DNA of 63,515 nt, the filler included, from Collodictyon triciliatum (taxonomy: Eukaryota): assembly GCA_043381765.1 (NCBI GenBank). It is 16 parts of 16 records of this genome, joined end to end, with 100 filler letters (N's around TTAATTAATTAA, not from the genome) between each part and the next. Parts side by side here need not be neighbours in the genome. Positions count along the whole stretch, not along the records: positions 3,985 to 7,867 come from JBHJMP010006760.1; 15 more parts are not named here. One strand, given 5' to 3'. Below the pieces are notes generated by a model that worked only from the letters and a program-made list of their open reading frames with translations, ran no database searches and had not been told where the DNA came from. Numbering within the stretch: position 1 is the first letter of the stretch; each line of letters starts with the position of its first letter. Position numbers and translations under genes: made by a program. Positions 4,208-54,033 of this stretch are shown in pieces.

Positions 4208-6795
4208 GATTTATACTCAGAGTATCGCCGACTAGATGGGATGGTCTCACAGATTGTTTTATTCAAGGATTATCAGAGAAAACTGCCGCTTGAGGTGCGC
4301 CAGTCTTTTGCCAACAGAAAGTAAGGACAAGCATATTCTATTTAGGACTAATTTCAAAAAATGTGTCGCGAATAGCACCATGAAGACATATACTGATTTG
4401 AAGTTGACGTAAAGAGACCTTTATCCTCATTATTGTTTGTATATCGGTTTAAAATCTTCACTACAATAGAGACAGGCTCTCTCGGAGAATATACTACATT
4501 CTGGAGCAAAAAACACACGAATTCTTCGAACCAGGTCGGTCCCACGGAGTTAAAGAGCACATCTATATAGAAGGAAAAAGAAGGACCATGCATTTTTACC
4601 CAAGTGCTCGTGTGGACGGACTTGTTTCCCGAGATGACCTGATTGGAAAAAAAGTTTATCTTTCATTCAAAATGTGGCCCAATATTAAAATCAAGGAGCT
4701 TTCCTCGTTACATTACTTTCCTTTTTATTGTGTGTGTGATAGCTCATTATCAAAATCTATTCAGATTGTGGAGACATACACTGGACGGGATGATAGATTG
4801 ATTTATCGCAGTATAACTTACTTTGACAAATCTGAGGTACCTCGATAGAATATTTTTTTTCCTTTATTCGATTCAAAGTACCTCGATAGAATATAAAAAA
4901 ATTCTATTTTTCTCCATTTATCTATCATGGATGAATACGTATATATGAGTGAATATTGACCCATTCTGATTTTTAGGGTGGAAGAAAGGACGAGTTAATC
5001 CCGCGCAAAATGACAGAGAAATTTTCGCGCAATGAATGTATTCTTTTTCTTACAAATCTCTTTTTTTTTTTTTCCTGCAAGAAAGAGCTCTTGAACTTGC
5101 CCTTAGAAGTATATCATAAATTAAAATGTGGAATATCCAATGGCATAACCTCGCTACACTTTGAATCGAATAAAGGAAAAAAAATGTGGAATATCCACTT
5201 ACCTATCAAACACACAGCGATACCTGCAGACGAGGATGTTGCGAAGAGAACATTCGACTTGGACGAAAAGAATGGAGGGATTCGCCTTGTTTTCCACAAA
5301 CTTCCAGGACGGATTACAGCATCTACAAGATTACATCCAAAATCAGGAGAAGCAGAGATATTCTTTGTATGAACTTATGATTTCCAAGTACTTCAGCATC
5401 AAGTGTCATATTGTTTTAGTAATGAGCAATTAACTTTATAATTTTTTTAAACAAGGTTGACCAGTTTTCTAAAAAACCAAAGAAGACAGCGCTTCATGAA
5501 GAGTTTGCCAGATTACTAATTGCTGAAAAGGATTGCACAACAGCTATACGCGAAAGTGAACGAGATGCAAAAGAAATTTTGAAGGTTTACATTATTTTTA
5601 TTTTTTTTAATTTTTTGTATGGTCACTTTTAGCCTTTCTTTTGCTGCATTCATTTAAAAGAATCTCAATTTAATTTCACAATATCCAGATCAGAAAAGAA
5701 GAGGAGGAAAAGATTCAGTTCATCTTCTCAGTATATGACACAGGCAGAAACAAGACGGTAATTTAAGCTGCCCACACTCCTTTTGTTCTACTTGAAACCA
5801 ATAAATTTAATCTGAACATAAAAGACCATCCTATAAACTTTGAATCGAATAAAGGGAAAAAAAAACACCATCCTATATTACTTAAGCTCCTTCACTCCCA
5901 CATTTACCATCTGACATCCCATGGCTCTACAGAAACGCCAAGATAACACTGCGGCAGCAGCAGCTCAGGAAGAACCAGACAAACGAAGGAGAGATTACCT
6001 GTCTCCGTTTATTCCAGTAAGAAAAAGAAAAAGAAAAAGAAAAAGAAAAAGAAAAAGAAAAAGAAAAAGAAAAAGAAAAAGAAAAAGAAAAAGAAAAAGA
6101 AAAAGAAAAAGAAAAGGAAAAGGAAAAGGAAAAGGAAAAGGAAAAGGAAAAGGAAAAGGAAAAGGAAAAGGAAAAGGAAAAAGAAAAGGAAAAAGAAAAA
6201 GAAAGTAAAAAATACAGTTAAGGCGAGCATATTATATGCAATTTGTATTGAAAGTTTACCATCTTTATTTTATTATTTCCTGAAAAATATATACTGAACC
6301 TTGAACAAATCAGAGCGACAAGCCAATTACCCGGGATGTGGCCTATTCCGCAAGAGAAGCCTGCCTGAAGGCCTTGAAGGACCGCCTTTTGGAAAAAGCA
6401 AACATGATTCACAACCGACTGGAGGAAGAAGTTGCAGCACTGAGCAAACGCAAAGCTGCCTACGAGCGAAATCAAGACCAAATGGATAAGGAAGAAGAGG
6501 AAGATTACATTCGTTATTGTAACGAAGCCATGTTCCGCATGCAGATTCTTGAACAGCGACTCGCCCGTGTAAGCTTTGATAATTATGCATGTCGCTCATC
6601 CCCTCAGTTATTTGGTTGGGTTGTATGAATCAATTTCCATTATCTAAATCCTAAAATAGAGATGCACCATGTTAATGTACTTTTTTTTTTTTTTTTTTTG
6701 GTGTGTGCTGATAGCATGAAGACCAGGCCGTACGAAAATATGACGAAATGAAGAACCGCATTAATTCCGACCCCCGACTTGCTCACTTCTTCTGA
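4208..6795 (+). CDS. DRC7: Dynein regulatory complex subunit 7 (CCDC135/FAP50), multi-exon, 5'-partial
   Basis: Spliced exons give HFYPSARVDGLVSR, ETYTGRDDRLIYRSITY, KMTEKFSRN, PADEDVAKRTF, RITASTR and ACLKALKDRLLEKANMIHNRLEEE...AMFRMQILEQRLARHEDQAVRKY...SDPRLAHFF*. GT-AG introns; TGA at 6793-6795. Confidence 0.9.
4837..4894 (-). mobile_element. Ultra-short poly(A)-tailed retro-insertion with 17-bp TSD
   Basis: GTACCTCGATAGAATAT at 4837-4853 and 4878-4894 flanks TTTTTTTCCTTTATTCGATTCAAA. Confidence 0.85.
5123..5197 (+). mobile_element. Ultra-short retro-insertion (41 nt, longest TSD-bounded copy) with perfect 17-bp TSD
   Basis: AAAATGTGGAATATCCA at 5123-5139 and 5181-5197 flanks ATGGCATAACCTCGCTACACTTTGAATCGAATAAAGGAAAA. 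The target reads TT/AAAA. Confidence 0.88.
5825..5877 (+). mobile_element. Ultra-short retro-insertion with TSD
   Basis: ACCATCCTATA at 5825-5835 and 5867-5877 flanks AACTTTGAATCGAATAAAGGG(A)n. Confidence 0.8.
6020..6204 (+). repeat. (GAAAAA)n/(GGAAAA)n microsatellite in a DRC7 intron
   Basis: Hexamer run directly after the donor CCA|GTAAG. Confidence 0.95.
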
Positions 6796-6840: not shown

Positions 6841-7017
6841 TTAAACCTCGCCTTGTCTCTCCCATGCAAACACAAGACCCAGGCTACAGGCCAAATCGCA
6901 GGATGCAATTCCTGATTACCGACTACTTCTCCGCCACCCGGCCAACAAGTAGCGCCCATGCAAACGATCAGCGAACCACCAATATCTCATCCTGCACAAA
7001 ATTGAAAGAAAAAAAAA
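6841..7017 (+). mobile_element. 5'-truncated LINE 3' end (family A) with A-tail
   Basis: Clearly homologous to the reverse complement of 11309-11505 and to 33254-33353; ends CCTGCACAAAATTGAAAG(A)n. Confidence 0.85.
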
Positions 7018-7867: not shown

Positions 7868-8201
7868 NNNNNNNNNNNNNNNNNNNNNNNNNNNNNNNNN
7901 NNNNNNNNNNNTTAATTAATTAANNNNNNNNNNNNNNNNNNNNNNNNNNNNNNNNNNNNNNNNNNNNTTTGCTTTTGCTTTTGCTTTTGCTTTTGCTTTT
8001 GTTTTTGTTTTGCTCTTTATTCGATTCAAAATGCAGCAGGGTTATGCCATACAATTGCTTTTGATTAGTTATATATTTTTGTTTGTGTCTCTGTGTACAT
8101 CATGCATTCGGTAACGCATCGAAAGTCGACCTCGTACTTTCCTTGTGCAATATGGATCGAGTAGTAAGAACAGCAATTCTGATGTTCTGTCTATTAGCGC
8201 A

Positions 8202-11308: not shown

Positions 11309-11849
11309 TTTTTTTTTTATTCTTCCTTTCAATTGTGTGCAGGATGGTGAAGATGTTGGCTTTGGTTCGCCAGCCATCGTTTGCATGGGTGCCACTTGGA
11401 CGCTACTTGGTGGCAGAGAAGTAGTCAGTAATCAGGGATTGCATCCTGCGGTTTGGTCTGTAGCCTGGGTCTTGTGCTTGCATGAGAGAGGTAAGACGTG
11501 GTTTAATTTCTTCCTCGCTTCTTTCCACATGTCTCTTCTCACGGGGTCTGAGTAGTAGAGAACGTGCACGTGGCGAAGGAAGCTGTTGAGGAAAGAGATT
11601 TGTATGATGCAATCCAGCCTATTATCAGGAATGGGTGGCTGGTTGTTGACTCTTGCTTTGCGTGAGTATATGCGCGCTATCCACACAGTCCATAGCAAAT
11701 GGCCTCGCGTCACTGCCCAGAATGTTTTTGCCTCTGGACGCAGCTGTTGCAGAGGCCCAAATATCGCCTGGATTGGGCCAACAGCTGCAGCCGTCTTGAG
11801 TGTCAGTCGAAGAATCTCACCGGCTGTTTCGCGCAGGTTTTGAGCGAAG
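11309..11849 (-). mobile_element. L1/Tx1-like LINE ORF2 C-terminus, 3' UTR and poly(A) (family A), tail-to-tail with RPL13
   Basis: Open from the contig end: FAQNLRE...AIFG...LLWTVWIAR (the W-x-I-W-x-x-R motif that follows the ORF2 zinc knuckle). Stop at 11432; ends GAAAGGAAGAATAAAAAAAAAA. Three further truncated copies occur in the window. Confidence 0.8.
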
Positions 11850-12035: not shown

Positions 12036-12225
12036 AACAGCCATTAATTTAACTCGTACTTTCTTGCCTCGCGTGAACTTTGAACCGAATAAATGCAAAA
12101 AAAAAAAAAAAATCTTTTAACACACGAACGTTGACCCCAAACAAATCTGTGAAGCCAGAGTGATACTAAACAGGAATTATGTCAATATCAACCCTGGTGA
12201 TATTCGTAGGGTTGAATTTTCCGTC

Positions 12226-15200
12226 ATGGTTCGATACAACGAAGAAAGCCCGCTGCTGGAGCCTAACGAAAAGAACGGTATTTCGATTTTTGAGTATAAC
12301 ACCATATATTCACGAAATGCAATTTTGAGTAACTTTTTTTAAAAAAAAAAAACATATATTATGTTCATATCTTTTGAACAGCTTCTTCCATATTTCATCC
12401 TTCTTTCACATTGAGTATAACATCGATCGACTTCTTTGAAAAGGAAAATTGTAAACCGTAATTGTTTTGAATTTATGCGCATTAAACAGCAAAGGTATAC
12501 CTAATTTAAGAATCAGAGCTCCTTGATTTTAAATTATTCAATATGGTGTTGTGTAAAAGGGAAGCTGAATCCTCTCTTGATTGGTCGTAACTGTCGTGAT
12601 GCGCTATTCCTTTTTATTTTCATCGCTTTCTGTGTGGGGATGGTTATTATCAGTGGTTTCGCTTTTGTTTATGGAGACGTTGACAGGTCAATGCAAATTC
12701 ATATCCCTTTTAAACCCCAGCTCCGTGAATACATAATTTAAAACTACTTATCACGACCGCATGAAATAAGAAAAAAGAATCATTAAGAATCATATTGTTG
12801 TGATTGGATTGGATTATTATCAACCAAATTATTATCTTCTTACTTTATAGACTCAAATATGGGACTGACTATGTTGGGGATATATGTGGCAATGAAGGCC
12901 GGGGGAAATACACATATTGGCTCGATCCTATCAATGAAGTAACAAACACATCAATTCTTTTTATGAAAACCTTGAATAAACACAAGATTAGTGCATATCT
13001 CGATTTTAATTTATCTTCTTTTTTTTTTCCTTTATAGAGCAACTGGAAATATAAAATATGCGTTCAGCAATGCCCTAACAACATCACTCCACTCAACTTA
13101 ACAGACTCGTCCAACCTAAAAAACGTAAAAATGAATTTCCTTTTATCGGCAATAAGATTTTGATGCCTTATTGCTCTCGTTAAATGAGCAGGACTGATAA
13201 TATGTTATGCAAGCTTTCTGCACAAAATTGAAAGGAAGAATAAAAAAAATGTTATGCAAGTTTTTTTTTCATTTGCTCCTCTTTTTTTCTTTTAATTCGT
13301 TTTTAGAATGTGCGTTGTCAATACGGTCTTGAACCGAGCTTAGATTCTGATGGACGACTTATAAACGGATGCTATCCAGCGTATAACTCGGAATCAGGTT
13401 GTCTCTCAATCATAATTCTTTGCTTATAAGATCATTTATATAGAGCATATCGCCTCCTTGTTACCCCTATACGTATGATTGTTTACCTTTGTACCATGGG
13501 CACTAGTTTTGTATCGATGTATTCCATCAACTTGTCCGGAAGACCAAGATACAGGATATATTCCCGAGAGCTGTGATAAAGTCATGGATGATAGTATAAA
13601 TGATGTTGGAAGGGAAGTTGAACGGATGATGTCAGATATATCTGATTCATGGGAGGTAAAGACCATTCAATCAATGTATAGTCATGCTGTTCGTCGGACT
13701 TTCTTTGTTTCCTCGATAACCATGTTTAACATGTAATTGTTATTTCTAATGAGAATGTATCAATTTTGAAAATTAATTTGTTAGGTAATCCTAATTGCCT
13801 GTGGGTTTGCTATTATTGTTTCATTTCTATGGTTATTCATCGTCCGCCTTTTCGCTGGGCTCATTGTGTGGTTGACATTAATTGGATTGGTGATCTCGTC
13901 AATCGCATTTACTGTTTACTTGTTTATCAAAGGTTTACATGCTTCCACATCGATATTTCTCTATAGTCCATATTTAATTATTAGTATAATCGTGAATTTA
14001 ATAGATTTATAATATTAATAGCCGGTGACTTGGAAGCAAACGATAAAGTTAATATTAAACCAGCTGAGGACAACCAGGTGATGACTTACTCTCTTCAATC
14101 TGTGATTATTTTGGGTGAATATAGAGTCGAAGGAAAACTGTTTGTTTTTTCTGCAACCAGAATTTTTAATAAGGCTTTGAGGTTTAGGACAACATTAGGA
14201 TACTTGGATATGCATTTATCGGACTCACAGTGTTGCTTATATGCTTGATTGTATTCATGGCTAAAGTTAGTCTAATATACAACAAGCGTAACCCCTTATG
14301 TATCGCAGCGGAAAATATCACTTGATGTGACTAACTCACACACCCCTTTTTTATTTCGTAATGTAGAGAATTCATTTTGCCATTAAAATAATTCAAGAAG
14401 CTACGTATGCAGTTGTTGCTGTCAAAAGCTTGGTTTTTTTTCCCTTTATCACAGCTATATCCATCGGGTGCTTTCTTGTTGGCTGGATTTTCATCGCTAT
14501 GTGTGATTTCCAAATAAGAATTCAGCTGAATATATTATTATATGTATTTAGTTTTTTTTTCCATTCCATTTTAATTATAATTCTATTCATTGATGAGTGA
14601 TTTTTACAGAATTCTTTTTTGCATTAGATATCTCGCCTCCTCTGGAAATTTCAATGACTCTAGCATGGAGTACGAACAGAGTGATACACTCAAGGTTACA
14701 CGATGAATTTTGAGTTGCTCGTTCTTTTTGGTGGGGTGGCATGAGCTGCTTTCTTGTTAATAACTATGTATGAATAGTATTTAATTTACTTTAGAGATTG
14801 ATGGTTTATCATTTCTTTGGATTGCTGTGGGTCTCTGGTTTTTTAATTGCCATCGCCCAAACGACTATGGCAATGGTCTTTTCCACTTGGTATTGGACCA
14901 GAGAACCTAAGGTATCAACGTTTTGTCGTTTTGTTAGTTTTTTTACAGGATATTTTGGTTCGTTGATTCGAAAATATATGACCTCAACGATGGGAAAAAA
15001 CAAAATAAATTTGTATATTCATTAATCCTAACTAATTTTTATTTCATATTGCCTTCTCAAATGAAAAAAAAAATATCTATCAGGAGTTACCCGATGATGT
15101 TGTATGGCAAAGTTTTACCCGAACTGTCAAATACCACAGTGGGTCGATGGCCCTGGGTTCCCTTATATTGGCGTTTGTCCAGCTTATTCGCAGTATATTT

Positions 15201-15581: not shown

Positions 15582-15829
15582 ATATTTTCTATTTTTTTTT
15601 ATTTTCTATTTTTTTATTTTCTATTTTTTTATTTTCTATTTTTTTATTTTCTATTTTTTATTTTCTATTTTTTTATTTTCTATTTTTTTATTTTCTATTT
15701 TTTTATTTTCTATTTTTTTATTTTCTATTTTTTTATTTTCTATTTTTTATTTTCTATTTTTTATTTTCTATTTTTTATTTTCTATTTTTTATTTTCTATT
15801 TTTTATTTTCTATTTTTTATTTTCTATTT
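15582..15829 (+). repeat. Degenerate (ATTTTCTATTTTTT)n minisatellite at the contig end
   Basis: Visible 14-16 nt periodicity. Confidence 0.9.
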
Positions 15830-19907: not shown

Positions 19908-22900
19908 ACGAAGTCTGGTTCACACAAGACCCGCAAAGGCTCCCCGCTGTGCCGAACGTCGACGAAGTCTGCTTCACACAAGACCCACGAAGGCTCTGCG
20001 TTATGCCGGAATACGACGAAGTCTGCTTCGCACAAGACCCGCAAAGGCTCTGCACTATGCCAGAATACTTCGCAGTCTGCTTCACACAAGACCCTCGAAG
20101 GATCTCCACTATGCCGGAATACGACGAAGTCTGCTTCACACACACAAAGACACACAGAGGCACTCCACTATGCCGAGATACGACGCAGTCTGCTTCACGC
20201 AAGACCCACGAAGGCCCTCCACTATGTTGGGATGAGACGAAGTCTGCTCCACACAAGACCCACAAAGGCTCTACACTATGCCGAATACGACGAAGTCTGC
20301 CTCACATAAGACCCACAAAGGCTCTACACTATGCCGAATACGACGAAGTCTGCCTCACATAAGACCCGCAAAGGCTCTCCATTATGCTGGACGTCGACGA
20401 AGTCTGCCTCACATAAGACCCGCAAAGGCTCTCCATTATGCCGGACGTCGACGAAGTCTGCCTCACATAAGACCCGCAAAGGCTCTCCATTATGCCCGAA
20501 CGTCGACGAAGTCTGCTTCACACACAACCCGCAAAGGTTGTGCGTTATGCCCGGATACGAAAACTGTAAGTCTCGTGAAATCAAAAAATCTATTTTTAGC
20601 TTTGCATCGAGCACTTTGATTTGTGCAAGCACATACCTAGCAGATGTTTTGTTATAATTCATATGGAAGGATTTTTACCATAAAGGAGAATAATAGAATT
20701 TCTCCTGTCAAAAATAGAGCAGTCTGTGTCCGGATATGGGGAACATTCGAAGCCCAATTAACTGTTTAATGAACGACGAAGTCTGCTTCGCTCACAAAAG
20801 ACCCGCAAAGGCTCCACTATGCCGGACGTCGACGAAATCTGCTTTACACACAATCCTCGAAGGCTCTCCACTATGCCGGAATACGACGAAGTCTGCTCCA
20901 CACACAACCCTCGAAGGCTCTCCACTATGCCCGAATACGACGAAGTCTGCTCCACACACAACCCTCGAAGGCTCTCCACTATGCCGGAATACGACACAGT
21001 CTGCTTCACACAAGACACAAGGCACACAGAAGCTCTCCACTATGCCCGAATACGACGAAGTCTGCTTCACACACACAACCCTCGAAGGCTCTCCACTATG
21101 CCGGAATACGACGAAGTCTGCTTCACACACGCAAGACACGCAAAGGATCTCCATTATGCTGAACGTCGACGAAGTCTGCTTCACACACAAGACCCGCAAA
21201 GGCTCTCCACTATGCCGGAATACGACGCAGTCTGCTCCACACAAGACCCGCAAAGGATCTCCACTATGCCGAACGTCGACGCAGTCTGCCTCACACAAGA
21301 CCCGCAGAGGCTCTCCACTATGCCGGGATGTGAAGATGTCTGCTTCACACACAACCCTCAAAGGCTCTCCACTATGCCGGAATACGACGAAGTCTGCTTC
21401 ACACACGCAAGACACGCAAAGGCTCTCCACTATGCCGGAATGTGACGATGTTTGCTTCACACACACAAGGCACACAGAAGCTCTCCACTATGCCCTAATA
21501 CGACGCAGTCTGCTTCACACACACAAGACCCACAAAGACTCCACTATGCCGAACGTCGACGAAGTCTGCCTCACACGCACAACCCTCGAAGGCTCCACTA
21601 TGCTGGGATGTGACGACGAAGTCTGCTTCACACACAAGACCCACAAAGGCTCTCCACTATGCCTAACGTCGACGAAGTCTGCTTCACACAAGACCCACAA
21701 AGGTTCCCCACTATGCCGGACTGCAACGAAGTCTGCTCCACACAAGACCCGCAAAGGATCTCCATTATGCCGAACGTCGACGAAGTCTGCCTCACTCAAG
21801 ACCCTCAAAGGCCCTCCACTATGCCGGAATACGATGCAGTCTGCTTCACACACAAGACCCGCAAAGGCTCTCCACTATGCCGGAATGTGACGATGTTTGC
21901 TTCACACACACAAGGCACACAGAAGCTCTCCACTATGCCGGGATACGACGCAGTCTGCTTCACACAAGACACACGACCCGCAGACGCTCTCCACTATGCC
22001 CGAATACGACGAAATTTGCTTCACACACACAACCCTCGAAGGTCTCCACTATGCCGGAATATGACGAAGTCTGCTTCACACACGCAAGACACGCAAAGGC
22101 TCTCCACTATGCCGGTATACGACGCAGTCTGCTTCACACACAAGACACACAGAGGCTCTCCACTATGCCGGTATACGACGCAGTCTGCTTCACACACACA
22201 AGACACAAACCTCAAAGGCTCTCCACTATGCCGGGGTACGACGAAGTCTGCTTCACACACAATCCTCAAAGGCTCTCCACTATGCTGAATACGAAAACCG
22301 TAAGTCTTAACCATTCATATATTCTATTTTGCTCTTCGCTTCAGGCACTTTGTTTTTTTCCTCCATACACTTAGTCGATGTTTTTGCTCTAATACATAAA
22401 GAAAGGTTTATTCATGCATGAAGTAGAATAATTGAATTTCTCGTGGAAAATAGAGCAATATGTGTCCGGCCATGTGAACTTTCGAAGCCCAATTCCTGTT
22501 TATTGAGCAACAAAGTCGAATCGCGGACCATCAAGGGCTCTGCACTATGCCGGAATACGAAAACCGTAAGTCTTAAGCAACCAGAAATTATGTTTTTCAT
22601 CGCATATAGCACTTTATTTTGTGCAAGCACACACTTAGTCGACGTTTTTTTGTTATAATTCATATAGAAGGCTTATTCATGCATAGAGCACAAAAATTGA
22701 ATTATCCTTGCGTAAATAGTGCGTCGGGTTATGTGAACATTCGAAGCCTAATTCCCTGTTTATTGAGCAACAAAGTCGAATCGCGGACCATCAAAGGCTC
22801 TCCACTATGCCCGAATACGAAAACCGTAAGTCTGCTTCGCACTAAGAACACGCAGAGGCTCTCCACTATGCCGGAATACGACGAAGTCTGCTTCACACAC

Positions 22901-23894: not shown

Positions 23895-23925
<31 letters not shown>

Positions 23926-24223
23926 CAAAACAAAACAAAACAAAACAAAACAAAACAAAACAAAACAAAACAAAACAAAAAAACAAAACAAAAAGCAACA
24001 AAACAAAAACAAAAAGCAACAAAACAAAAACAAAAACAAAAAACGAAAAAATAAAAAAAAGTCGCACACTGGTATTATAATAAATTTTAAAGCTCGGCAA
24101 TAGTCTTCAGCAGCTGGTATTCTTTTTATGTTTTCCCGCAGCGTTGTGATTGATATTTGCATCTGAACGCATAGAGTTGACTAATTACTTCGTAAGAGTT
24201 TCAAGAAGAAAAGCGGCTCAGAC

Positions 24224-49346: not shown

Positions 49347-51482
49347 ATGGCTTCCCAACCTCGGATCATTGCCGGGGTCCTCAGCTTGTTGCTCTTGTGC
49401 GCAACACAAACATTTGCCTACGAATGCTACGAGGGACAATGTGCCCAGATCGAGGCTGAAGTTGCCGCACAAACAAAGTTTGTCATATTTTTATGCACTG
49501 CCCACTTATCATATTATTGACCCCGACTTCAGCTTCGCCTCTCTCTCTCTCTCTCTTCTCACGAACCTTTCTGACTGCCCTTTGCTATGCCGACTTTATG
49601 AGCTGCATCTGAGTTCCCTCTGAAACTTAACCTTGCTTTCTCTTATCTTTATTTTATTTCGTCTGAATGTTCTCACAGTTCATTGTGCATACATGTTGTT
49701 TACCTTCTCCTAATTACACGGGGCTCTGGCAACATAACAGTCGAATAGACACAACTTTAAGTTTGGGAACGAGCCAAGTCCTCATAGTAATTTTATTTTC
49801 CATTCCTTAAAAAGTCAAACTAAGTTCACCATCGGGGATCGCATCTTCAGCGCAATGTATCTTCAAACCATCGTCACAAAAAACGTCAGCGAGTCTATCA
49901 CCTATTCTTACCTGACTTACCGTGCAAAATTCTACCCCGAAGTTGACCAATTCTCTGTGATGCGCTCTCCAGGAAGTATGTTTTTATGAGAAGACTTTTT
50001 TTTTCTTCCTTTATTCGATTCAAAGTTTTAAGAGAAGACCTTATTCTGATATGAACTTGTCGCATTTATTCGCTATATTATTCTATTCCAAATTAGTTGA
50101 CTTATATTATGCAAAGCCTCTATATTCTCAAATACGCAGTTTTATTTCTCTCTTTTCTAACCGGGTCGTTTCTGGAAGAATACTATTTGTTCATCGTCTT
50201 TTCACATACTTTACGATGAGGGGATGTCTGGCTCTTTTGTAATTGGCCAACTCTTACAATTCTTTCTAGGCGGAGCAATAATGGACAATGCTGGAGGTTT
50301 CTCCAGTTACATTTTTGCAGAAGTGAACGGCTTCTTCACCTGCAAGCGCCCGCATTACAAAAACTCTAGGGAATTTAACTCTTTTTACACTGTGGTTGCA
50401 ACCCTCGAAGATGGGAAAGTTGACAAGGTCGAATGGAGTGATGGTGCCAAGTGCTCTGTTTCCAGTAATTTTTTCAAATTATTTCTCGCCCTGTGATATC
50501 TTCAAGTTTATCTTCTTTGAATTGAATAAAGGAAAATAATCTTTAAGTCTATTTTTTTTTTAAAAAAAGAAAATTGTTTAGCATAGCACGTAACACTTCC
50601 TTTATTTTACAAAACTCTATCTTGCTGATAGCATTTTTGTTTTATTTTGTTTTGATGTGCTGTATTTTACATGACATTTACTTTGGTCTTGTGTTTTAAA
50701 AGATGACTGTATTTACAAAGTTACAGCAGCCTGTAACTTTAAATTTCAATAGGTACAAATAACTGCACACTTTCCGTGACGCCTTCATGCACAAGCAGTT
50801 ACTGCAGCTATAACAATATTCCTATTTGCAATGAAAAGACCTTTCCTGATGATAAGGTTTTAATTGACAAAGAGTCTGCTAATTGCCCAGAAAGCAAAGA
50901 GTGTGACCCCAAGGTACACTTTCGTTTCCATCAATGCGAGTATATTTACATATACATCTTTATACTGCTCTATAGAACTATACCTATCTCTAAGTCGCCT
51001 GAAAAACACATGCAGATATATCTGGCTTTTATCGGACCAGACAAGAATGGAGACCCCACGACAAGCACCAGTAAGTGGTGACAATATGATTTTTAATAAA
51101 ACTCTCCTCAATCAACAACGAATCACATACGGAGGGATTTTTGCTACCCATTCAATTAGAATTCTTTTCAACTATTACTTGACGTTGATATCGTTATTGC
51201 TTCTATTTTCCTTGGTATCGCTCATAACCCCAAGCAACTCACCCTTTTCTATATCTATGGATGGAAATACATATTTCCTACTTTACTAACTAATTCCTCA
51301 TCTTCATATATAATCAAGACCTCATCTTCAGCAACTTTCAATCTTTTGGTGTGGACTACAGTCAATTAGTCAAATCCGCCACAAAGATTGGAGCGTCCAT
51401 CCCCTACGATGATGTAAGGATAGCATATCTCAAATAGCCTTTCGATACTATTACATGCTCATAGAATTTCTCAGATAACTAG
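49347..51482 (+). CDS. Secreted Cys-containing protein resembling the plant/protist Expp1-like family, multi-exon
   Basis: Signal peptide MASQPRIIAGVLSLLLLCATQTFA; FYPEVDQFSVM; FYTVVATLEDGKVDKVEWSDG; CDPK|IYLAFIGPDKNG...FSNFQSF. The family call is from recalled motifs and the last exon is uncertain. Confidence 0.6.
49982..50039 (-). mobile_element. Ultra-short retro-insertion with 14-bp TSD, just inside an intron donor
   Basis: TTTTATGAGAAGAC and TTTTAAGAGAAGAC flank (T)nCTTCCTTTATTCGATTCAAAG. Confidence 0.8.
50498..50552 (+). mobile_element. Ultra-short retro-insertion with diverged 14-bp TSD
   Basis: ATCTTCAAGTTTAT and ATCTTTAAGTCTAT flank CTTCTTTGAATTGAATAAAGGAAAATA. Confidence 0.7.
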
Positions 51483-51609: not shown

Positions 51610-54033
51610 TNNNNNNNNNNNNNNNNNNNNNNNNNNNNNNNNNNNNNNNNNNNNTTAATTAATTAANNNNNNNNNNNNNNNNNNNNNNNNNNNNNNNNNN
51701 NNNNNNNNNNGTCTTTTTTATGTCTTTTTTATGTCTTTTTTATGTCTTTTTTATGTCTTTTTTATGTCTTTTTTATGTCTTTTTTATGTCTTTTTTATGT
51801 CTTTTATGTTTTTTATGTTTTTTTGTCATGTGTGCCTAATACATTCAGTGTGTCAACTTTGCTTTTGACAAATATTATGTATGTGCTTAGTTTCGAGTCT
51901 GACTTTGTCGGGGCGAGTCTCGGGATTGCTCCGAGTTTATTATGTTGTGATTGCCAAAGAAGCAGACAACATTGTACCGTTTCTTAAGTTCATATCCTAT
52001 TCCGGAAACTAAATCAAATGTTAGCTTTTTTGTTCGCAACACTCATCTTAGCGCTTACTCGGTGCAATCTTCCATAGTACGAACAGCATGATTCTATTTG
52101 TTCTTGGCATAAAGGTGTTTCCGATCATATGCTCCTTAATAAAAGGATGTTATTATTTGTCGGGTTTTAAATCATCACAATTTCAGTGCGCTGTCTTAAG
52201 ACATCACGTCAGTGTTCTATGGAACTAGTGGGTGGATAGTGCTGGTGACTGTGGAGCAATTTTTGTTACAAATCAAAAAGGAATAGTAGATTGCATTTTC
52301 CTGTTTGTTTGTAACCCGATTCTAGAAATAGCCACCAAACGTGTTTATTTCACGATATTATGCATATTTTAGATTAACTTTCAATACTACCTTATGGTAT
52401 TTCCTGATGGATTACATTTGAGTCTTGCATGAGACATTGTATCCGAATCTGTATCATATTTGGCGTTTTCAATAACTCCTTTCATGAAAAAGAGTATATT
52501 CCATATTTATATTGAATAAAAGTAAACATTTGGTTTGTTACAAAAGCATTCCAACAGAGAACATTTTTCCTGTCTTAAAAAAATAACTAAATATCTATCT
52601 CATGTTTCAACGATATTTTTACCTAATTTTTTTCCTTTTCTCGATTCAAAGTTTTATCTGCATATATTATATTGCCAGAAAATCTGCCTTTCGGTATAAT
52701 CATATAGAAAAATGGTTATTTTCCTTTGCTCTTCAGCATTTATTAGATCCGTGACCAATTAGTCATGAAATTATCTAACTTCAAAAGTATTTTTAAATAC
52801 GATATTGGAGTCATACAGCTCGACTTATCAAACTCTCCAGTGGTATACTTTTTACATACATTACAAAATAAGAAAAAACGTCATTCAGGCAATATACTTT
52901 CAAGATTTAAATTCATACATCCACCGAATGTTGTCACCCATGTAGAACTTACGTTTTTCATGAGTGTTCATTGTGTAATTCATCTACAATTAACAAGGGA
53001 TTATTTATGTTCATCTTCAATAAGACTACAATAGTGTCGCATTATGGGTAAGGCAAGAATAAGAGCTAAATTTGGTGCAATTTTTAATTCACTTTGGTCC
53101 ATCAAAATATAAAGCGAATGAAGCACGCAAAGAGAATTTCTTTGTATAATTGTTTTGTTATGTTATGTGTTGTTTTTCTTTATATCGATCATTTTCACAA
53201 CTAGAAAAGTCTTTTTTTTTTTCATTTATGTATTTTTTTCGTCCTTTAAATCCAACTATTAGTTGTTTTCATAAGCCCCAAATTTATCTAGAAATTCTTT
53301 TTCCTTATCAAATCCATGATAATATATGAAGCATCCACCACTGTTTATATAATCATCGAATGAAATGTTCAGTCATCCTTCAACAAGATGATGATTATGG
53401 ACAGAATAAAATCCGGGTTGTGTTAACGTCTCATATAAAAGACACATCCCGCCATCATTAAATTATTGACAAAGTGAAAATAGCATAAATACTAAGCTCT
53501 TGCCTCCAGTTAGGTCTGCACACCGACTGAGCGTTTCGCGGTTTAATAGTCTGTGTAAGATTTGAAGTGTTCTAAAAATTTGCCTCTGTATGAACTCATG
53601 CACAATCAAATAAGTAAGTCCCCTTAACCTTTTACAATCACATTGAATTTTTCAGTTTATATTCAAATGATTATTGTGATGACAGTTTGTTTTCTATTTG
53701 ATATGGAAGTGAATATACCTTTCTAATTATGCGTCTATGATTCATCCACCCACCCATCCGTCCACCCATCCGTCCACCCACCCACACCGACTCAAATATC
53801 AAAATTATATTTACTTCCCAACATGAATGAAAGCTCTCAGCATCACAAAAATCGTTGACAAATGAGCTAGACGAAAAAAGGAGGCGGTATATCAACACCC
53901 ACACAAAAAAAAGCCCTAAAATTTCTTTCATACCATATTTAGAATTAATTTTTGGAAATTATGTAAATTTCTTATTTTTCAGGAAACCTCCTTTTCTATT
54001 CGCCCATATTTCTGTATTTACAAGCAAAATATA

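Follow-up and report, generated by a model that had tools for sequence, protein, structure and literature searches.

In the account of one review, the truncated members of families of long interspersed nuclear elements (LINEs) usually measure 100-1000 bp (PMC3747384), and the same source gives the eel pair UnaL2/UnaSINE1 as a case in which a short interspersed nuclear element (SINE) shares the 3' tail of a 'stringent' LINE. Somatic L1 insertions with very heavy truncation are likewise documented in human cells (PMC4398972). The present analysis concerns a stretch of 63,515 bases of DNA from Collodictyon triciliatum (hereafter the window), composed of 16 contigs of 3,867-3,884 bp that are ordered from longest to shortest, are separated by spacers (N44-TTAATTAATTAA-N44) and whose G+C content ranges from 31 to 48%. 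It contains ten copies of a short insertion, here designated family 1, which is defined by the 18-nt motif CTTTGAATCGAATAAAGG followed by an A-tail; family 2 and a third tail type, which are described further below, correspond to other tails found in the same window.

Family 1 resembles the 5'-truncated, 'dead-on-arrival' copies of L1/Tx1-type poly(A) LINEs in its common 3' end, its A-tail, its variable target-site duplications (TSDs) of 11-19 bp and its A/T-rich targets, and the likeness to L1/Tx1-type LINEs extends to the parent, with an open reading frame 2 (ORF2) that has a C-terminal zf-RVT domain and with relatives that have an apurinic/apyrimidinic endonuclease (APE) and a reverse transcriptase (RT). 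Unlike the usual truncated LINE copies, as sized in the review (PMC3747384), family-1 copies are only 18-41 nt long and seven of the ten have one endpoint; unlike 5'-truncated poly(A) LINE copies, the youngest of them have tails of just 7-9 A. As in tail sharing of the UnaL2/UnaSINE1 type, in the form that the review presents it (PMC3747384), a short LINE 3' end with a repeat tail is carried to new sites, and the fact that the LINE 3' end is the part carried is consistent with an RT that recognises this end. Family 1 differs from SINEs that share stringent LINE tails in having no head, body or promoter, the unit being the LINE terminus alone, and from stringent-type tails, as characterised in the same review (PMC3747384), in having no stable or covarying stem-loop. 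Human somatic L1 events are similar in being resolved after very little cDNA synthesis, but in the report that documents them (PMC4398972) they are part of a broad spectrum, whereas family 1 has a dominant short class with a fixed endpoint. The phenomenon is in kind LINE 5' truncation. A full-text literature search, with subscription journals and supplements outside its scope, found no LINE with common copies of ca. 18 nt and a fixed endpoint.

Family-1 copies and their target sites

With up to three mismatches, the 18-mer CTTTGAATCGAATAAAGG has nine matches in the window (4861-, 5159+, 5838+, 8014-, 12078+, 48698+, 50008-, 50515+ and 52634-), against a mean of 0.19 in dinucleotide shuffles, none of 100 of which reached nine. 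The tenth copy is a degenerate 21-nt version (1244-1264) located between 18-bp repeats that match at 16 of 18 positions. The copies are spread in both orientations over six of the 16 contigs (contigs 1, 2, 3, 4, 13 and 14), and in all ten an A-run follows the motif. The original prediction, made from the sequence alone, had described about ten copies on six contigs in both orientations, and this description proved correct wherever it could be counted.

Direct repeats were assessed by comparing the 24 nt that precede each element with the 24 nt that follow its tail and by setting the result against 5000 random 24-mers; the copy at 8014, whose tail reaches the contig end, was left out. Significant repeats of 11-18 bp were found for seven of the nine testable copies (p 0.0000-0.0024), in agreement with the seven TSD-flanked copies that had been predicted. 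A scan blind to the motif, which looked for A-runs of at least 6 followed at once by a sequence recurring within 400 nt upstream (low-complexity matches removed), returned seven sites against none in a reversed-sequence control; four of the seven are family-1 copies and six are tails of family 1 or 2. A looser scan (A-run of at least 5, score of at least 8) gave noise only, with 24 real sites versus 29 in the control. The tail and TSD evidence from the motif-blind scan and the TSD test fits the target-primed reverse transcription (TPRT) that had been proposed for these insertions.

Family-1 insertion targets are A/T-rich. The target of the copy at 5140 is TT|AAAA, as had been predicted for this copy (5123 with its TSD) and as the curated alignment confirms. 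In the curated alignments, T precedes the TSD in 8 of 10 cases and the first base of the TSD is A in 9 of 10, a preference that is partly a product of where the tail boundary is drawn. The youngest copies have tails of only 7-9 A, which suggests initiation at the junction between the 3' untranslated region (UTR) and the tail.

The copy on contig 1 (1226-1282, + strand) is old and degenerate: its element (1244-1264) consists of ca. 18 nt of LINE tail and a short A-run, with TSDs at 1226-1243 and 1265-1282 (16/18, p 0.0000). Three copies are found on contig 2, all in introns of the gene for dynein regulatory complex subunit 7 (DRC7). The first (4837-4894, - strand, antisense to the gene) has 17-18 nt plus A7-8 (4854-4877) and perfect 17-bp TSDs (4837-4853 and 4878-4894); the second (5123-5197, + strand, sense) has 37 nt plus tail (5140-5180) and equally perfect 17-bp TSDs (5123-5139 and 5181-5197); the third (5820-5877, + strand, sense) has 19-21 nt plus an A-tail (5836-5861), with TSDs at 5820-5835 and 5862-5877 (15/16). 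The longest copy (7968-8054, - strand) has 41 nt (8014-8054) and is 86.5% identical over 52 positions to bases 1006-1056 of the metagenome contig L004, described below. A variant copy (12067-12112, + strand) has 29 nt followed by C and A16 and is 83% identical over 42 positions to L004 (TSD p 0.12). The remaining four copies all have 18 nt. One (48687-48738, + strand) is followed by A9 (48698-48724) and has TSDs at 48687-48697 and 48728-48738 (10/11, p 0.0014); another (49982-50042, - strand) occupies 49999-50025 with its tail, between TSDs at 50026-50042 and 49982-49998 (15/17, p 0.0008). The copy at 50498-50555 (+ strand) has one mismatch and a short interrupted tail, with TSDs at 50498-50514 and 50539-50555 (14/17, p 0.0024), and that at 52627-52651 (- strand) has two mismatches and A7 (TSD p 0.19). 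The tail of the 8014-8054 copy is now a microsatellite of the (CAAAAG)n type (7968-8013) that runs to the contig start; other A-rich repeats are frequent in the window, such as one with a 15-nt unit (15596-15800) and a (CAAAA)n tract (23911-23979).

The window is made of short contigs, which might favour reading the whole pattern as a chance motif or an assembly artefact. The nine matches against 0.19 expected and the TSDs, which differ from site to site, count against this, as does the recurrence of the sequence elsewhere, in a metagenome contig of independent origin and in contigs from other runs, and we give an artefact almost no credence. In this window the phenomenon is genuine and has clear statistical support, though on a base of ten copies.

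The parent LINE

L004 is a metagenome contig of 1,157 bp whose minus strand ends in ...CCCTTTGT-ATGGCATAACCTCGCTACA-CTTTGAATCGAATAAAGG-A10. It is identical to window positions 5140-5184 at 45 of 45 bases, and in a blastn comparison with the window all copies appear as nested 3' ends that start at L004 positions 1006-1029 and have one common 3' endpoint. Upstream, L004 has an ORF of 202 aa with a zf-RVT domain (PF13966, E 1.5e-7, 32.4 bits versus a Pfam cut-off of 27.5), then 133 aa in another frame. The identity, the nested 3' ends and the ORF upstream indicate that the motif is the terminus of a LINE 3' UTR and not a free-standing element. As judged from these alignments, the motif makes up the final 18 nt of the 3' UTR in a poly(A) LINE, a non-LTR retrotransposon with a predicted ORF2 that ends in a zf-RVT zinc knuckle. 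The original prediction had offered LINE 3' ends as one of two explanations and had suggested extending the longest copies; this extension led to the ORF2 C-terminus in L004, and it is this explanation that the zf-RVT domain upholds.

Both ORF pieces of L004 are spanned in one frame by a public protein of 359 aa (P0015), with 97% and 94% identity. Since P0015 reads through, L004 is a frameshifted, defective copy (frameshift at ca. 549-606); the intact parent ORF, from the comparison of the two, ends 93 nt before the tail. The zf-RVT domain is also present in P0015, P0002, P0004 and P0008. Only 14 relatives at E <= 0.001 emerged when 1.84 billion representatives were searched exhaustively with HMMER. 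Four of them are full-length (1226-1275 aa, 29-38% identical), and all four have Exo_endo_phos and RVT_1, while zf-RVT occurs in three of the four as a weak match, below the cut-off. The predicted domain order of these proteins is the ORF2 layout of APE-type LINEs, and the parent presumably has an APE-type endonuclease and an RT of its own. Within the family itself the sequence read covers the last ca. 1050 nt of the parent (L004), and P0015, the longest protein of the family, stops short of the RT region. No longer relative of the L004 ORF turned up at E <= 0.001 in a homology search. A cluster look-up of five relatives gave no informative names, and the protein atlas gave zf-RVT clusters from assorted animals. 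Taken together, the parent shows a C-terminal zf-RVT, a 3' poly(A) tail, variable TSDs and a 5'-truncation series on a common 3' end.

Among other collections, the metagenome contigs gave two motif matches, namely L004, which is real, and L005, which has no tail and is taken as chance. Three matches of a 17-mer in the viral contigs all lack an A-tail and are also taken as chance, and the genome contigs gave no motif match.

The parent LINE is present in the organism of the window as well. This relies on assembled contigs of spliced RNA from public runs that were aligned to contig 2 (X1 and X2) and in which the intron-borne copies are skipped. Spliced contigs of X1 show almost no differences from the DRC7 exons, and seven X1 contigs extend beyond 5140 in the upstream direction, where their consensus is close to L004. 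Contigs of two other runs (X3 and X4) cover only parts of contig 2 other than the copy-bearing introns.

Length distribution and position of the 5' ends

Without their tails, seven family-1 copies measure 18-19 nt (1244, 4861, 5838, 48698, 50008, 50515 and 52634) and the rest 29, 37 and 41 nt, so that all ten are at most 41 nt long. The 5' ends of the seven fall at -18/-19, at or within 1 nt of CTTTG, which bears out the earlier remark that most copies start within a few nt of CTTTGAA. The probability of seven out of ten endpoints in one 2-nt bin is 3.7e-6 under a uniform distribution over 7-45 nt (corrected) and 4.8e-7 under the best-case geometric fall-off. A suffix scan, in which any parent 3' suffix of at least 6 nt directly before an A-run was sought alongside a control, found one shorter candidate only (7 nt at 13029, with no TSD) versus none in the control. 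Nearly no shorter copies thus occur, which indicates that 18 nt is the mode of the distribution and not a detection floor. The shorter candidate (13016-13035, - strand) is ATAAAGG followed by A10, that is the last 7 nt of the motif plus a tail, and could be either a chance match or a copy that is shorter still. According to the original prediction, a smooth length series leading into a full LINE would make the copies ordinary truncations; the LINE parent was found, but the family-1 lengths in the window are spiked rather than smooth.

Microhomology at the seven -18/-19 junctions amounts to only 0-2 nt, with one junction having an extra A, and it was therefore ruled out as the cause of the fixed endpoint.

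The original prediction also drew a small terminal hairpin in the RNA (CTTTG/TAAAG, loop AATCGAA) at which RT would be blocked, synthesis nearly always ending there. Five pairs can indeed be drawn, the 5' ends of the copies coincide with the base of the drawn stem, and the stem occurs when the 231-nt 3' region of L004 is folded to minimum energy. The pairing on paper stands but the fold does not: no folding is predicted for the 18-mer and its tail (minimum free energy 0 kcal/mol, z +0.78), 200 of 200 shuffles folding at least as well, and this sequence has no 3' stem-loop of the stringent type. The 231-nt region is no more structured than its shuffles (z -0.47), and its centroid structure has no CTTTG/TAAAG stem. 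Variant copies alter the stem without compensation (TAAAT at 12078, GAAAAGG at 52634), covariation being weakly tested by only three variants. Furthermore, RT meets the 3' arm first, so that stalling at a hairpin should presumably leave it in front of the stem and not beyond. A hairpin stop is very unlikely and was rejected on the unfolded 18-mer and tail, the unremarkable 231-nt region and the uncompensated stem changes.

A defined 5' end in most copies, with a tail shared with a LINE (45/45 up to the L004 end), could also be expected if a tiny, autonomous-looking SINE, or another small cellular RNA under a promoter of its own, used a borrowed LINE machinery, and a SINE-like RNA had been the other explanation put forward at the outset. 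The LINE 3' UTR, however, ends in a sequence identical to the entire unit, and the longer copies run on into that UTR, while 18 nt are too few to hold the A and B boxes of an RNA polymerase III head. A search of the window and L004 at Rfam gathering thresholds gave no match (no ribozyme, tRNA, 7SL, 5S or small nuclear RNA). With no Rfam match, no head and a unit of 18-41 nt that is wholly LINE 3' UTR, a promoter-bearing SINE was rejected and must be regarded as extremely improbable.

Abortive reverse transcription or a short template

We think it rather probable that family 1 arose from a LINE through abortive TPRT, with release or hand-over at a preferred early endpoint. Each copy would represent a separate TPRT event, in which an endonuclease would nick an A/T-rich site, the LINE RNA would prime on the nick through its short A-run and cDNA synthesis would begin. 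The event would be resolved after only 18-41 nt, leaving a target duplication of 11-19 bp, and the resulting copies would be dead on arrival, unable to move again. The pile-up of 5' ends at -18/-19 could reflect an enzyme that lets go, or passes the cDNA to second-strand joining, once the 3'-terminal RNA held at initiation has been copied. Family-1 copies are presumably abundant throughout the genome.

Several points weigh against this account. The sample is ten copies in ca. 62 kb, and two of the nine testable copies have no significant TSD (12078, p 0.12; 52634, p 0.19). No stable structure was found in or just upstream of the 18-mer that would explain a stop at -18/-19, and the RT and endonuclease domains were seen only in relatives at 29-38% identity. 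Family 2, with four copies, has no spike matching that of family 1. The contigs are short (ca. 3.9 kb). Should they be the product of short-read assembly, any young repeat exceeding the word size of the assembler would have interrupted them; assembly bias may then partly account for why no long family-1 copies are seen within contigs, and their absence there would be weak evidence. Long family-1 copies do exist, in L004 and in the RNA contigs upstream of 5140. Finally, a microhomology of 0-2 nt and a discrete 5' end are also what would be expected of run-off on a short RNA.

In that case, the main alternative, the template would already be short, a LINE transcript trimmed to its last 18-19 nt plus tail and copied to the end, which we regard as possible but rather unlikely. 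Such trimming could result from 5'-to-3' decay brought to a halt by RT or a poly(A)-binding protein on the RNA, or from cleavage that is either site-specific or guided by a small RNA; the copies of 29-41 nt would then derive from further intermediates of decay. The sharp endpoint (7/10 within 1 nt), the 0-2 nt of microhomology with one extra A and the want of any structure able to stall RT speak for such a template and fit early release equally well. Almost no copies are shorter than 18 nt, which also favours it, and a second set of RNA-contig ends is found at 5149 (-28; three in X1, two in X2), matching the 29-nt copy at 12067. Against it, no RNA of 18-19 nt plus tail was observed in the RNA data, which consist of assembled contigs and cannot show RNA ends; no ribozyme or other Rfam family occurs in the window or L004; and the lengths of family 2 (24, 92 and ca. 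170 nt) form no obvious discrete class. It is a doubtful, though conceivable, proposition that the 18-19 nt with a short A-run exist as a discrete RNA, either a nuclease-resistant footprint that the RT of the LINE leaves at the 3' end of the LINE transcript or a stub sliced by a small RNA, that has been reverse-transcribed and inserted thousands of times.

Other tail types in the window

Short, TSD-flanked tail copies are not peculiar to family 1. The 3' portion of a family-2 LINE (11310-11849, - strand) comprises an ORF2 C-terminal region, a 3' UTR of ca. 114 nt and a tail ending in ...ATTGAAAGGAAGAAT(A)n, and it runs off the end of contig 3; its ORF is similar to the C-terminus encoded by L004 (tblastn, 42.7% over 96 aa, E 5e-21). 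A second, older copy (6841-7017, + strand) has ca. 170 nt and an A-run, is 80% like the 11849-11310 copy and has no clear TSD (p 0.57). This fragment has by far the highest summed RNA-contig depth on contig 2 (bin 6845-6974: X1 3411, X2 2211), which indicates that family 2 is present in many transcript contigs. The other two members are a micro-copy (13199-13264, + strand) of 24 nt plus tail (13218-13245), with 19-bp TSDs matching at 17/19 positions (p 0.0002), and a copy (33235-33372, + strand) of 92 nt plus A8 (33254-33353), 91% identical over 89 positions, with 19-bp TSDs (18/19).

The third tail type occurs as a single copy in the window (44054-44131, - strand), with a 40-nt insert plus A-run (44070-44115) and perfect 16-bp TSDs. 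It is unrelated in sequence to families 1 and 2, and its insert has a stable 8-bp hairpin (GTTGAG...CTCAAC, -8.5 kcal/mol, z -2.28); its source may be a LINE or the 3' end of an mRNA. GAATAAA before or within the A-run is common to all three tail types.

The DRC7 gene and other coding regions

Exons of contig 2 match PF24667 MORN_DRC7 (MORN domain, E 9e-20), and RNA contigs of two public runs splice six short introns, five of which are GT..AG, which marks the sequence as eukaryotic. The sixth (ca. 4837-4976) is listed as AC..GG, with an ambiguous junction in the RNA contig alignment. The introns at ca. 4837-4976, 5038-5217 and 5757-5931, which are skipped in the spliced RNA contigs, contain the copies at 4854-4877, 5140-5180 and 5836-5861, respectively. 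The placement of three copies in DRC7 introns, as originally proposed, is therefore supported by both the spliced RNA and the PF24667 match. The 17-bp TSD of the antisense copy (4837-4894) starts at the first base of its intron. The 5' splice-site sequence GTACCT is thus doubled, at 4837 and 4878, and the RNA contigs use the upstream one; the splice joint in these contigs is near 4838, its exact base being ambiguous.

A Pfam search of nine ORFs on contigs 1, 13 and 14, near other family-1 copies, matched no family. Elsewhere in the window, two adjoining open frames at 27863-30872 (+ strand; ca. 1000 aa) encode, from translation only, many cysteine-rich repeats of the CxxCPxGTF type and then a hydrophobic region of multi-pass appearance. 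An open frame of 390 aa at 20718-21890 (+ strand), on a contig with 48% G+C, consists of tandem ...GSPLCRNTTKSA.H.. peptide repeats.

Significance

If the window is representative, with ten copies in ca. 62 kb, the genome would be strewn with LINE insertions whose small size lets them escape ordinary repeat masking, and every copy would bring AATAAA and an A/T run into intronic or intergenic DNA. One family-1 copy duplicates a 5' splice site, and old tails would seed A-rich microsatellites. Should the genome-wide length distribution turn out to be smooth instead, these copies would merely represent an unusually steep form of ordinary LINE truncation. A true fixed endpoint at 18-19 nt would offer a natural handle on a poorly understood step of TPRT, either the hand-over from initiation to processive synthesis or the decay of the template, and would delimit the minimal 3' element used by this RT. 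If the copies are discrete stubs, they would be the shortest retroposed unit described and a read-out of the minimal RNA element for the start of TPRT; they might also record the action of the host's RNA decay or silencing on LINE transcripts.

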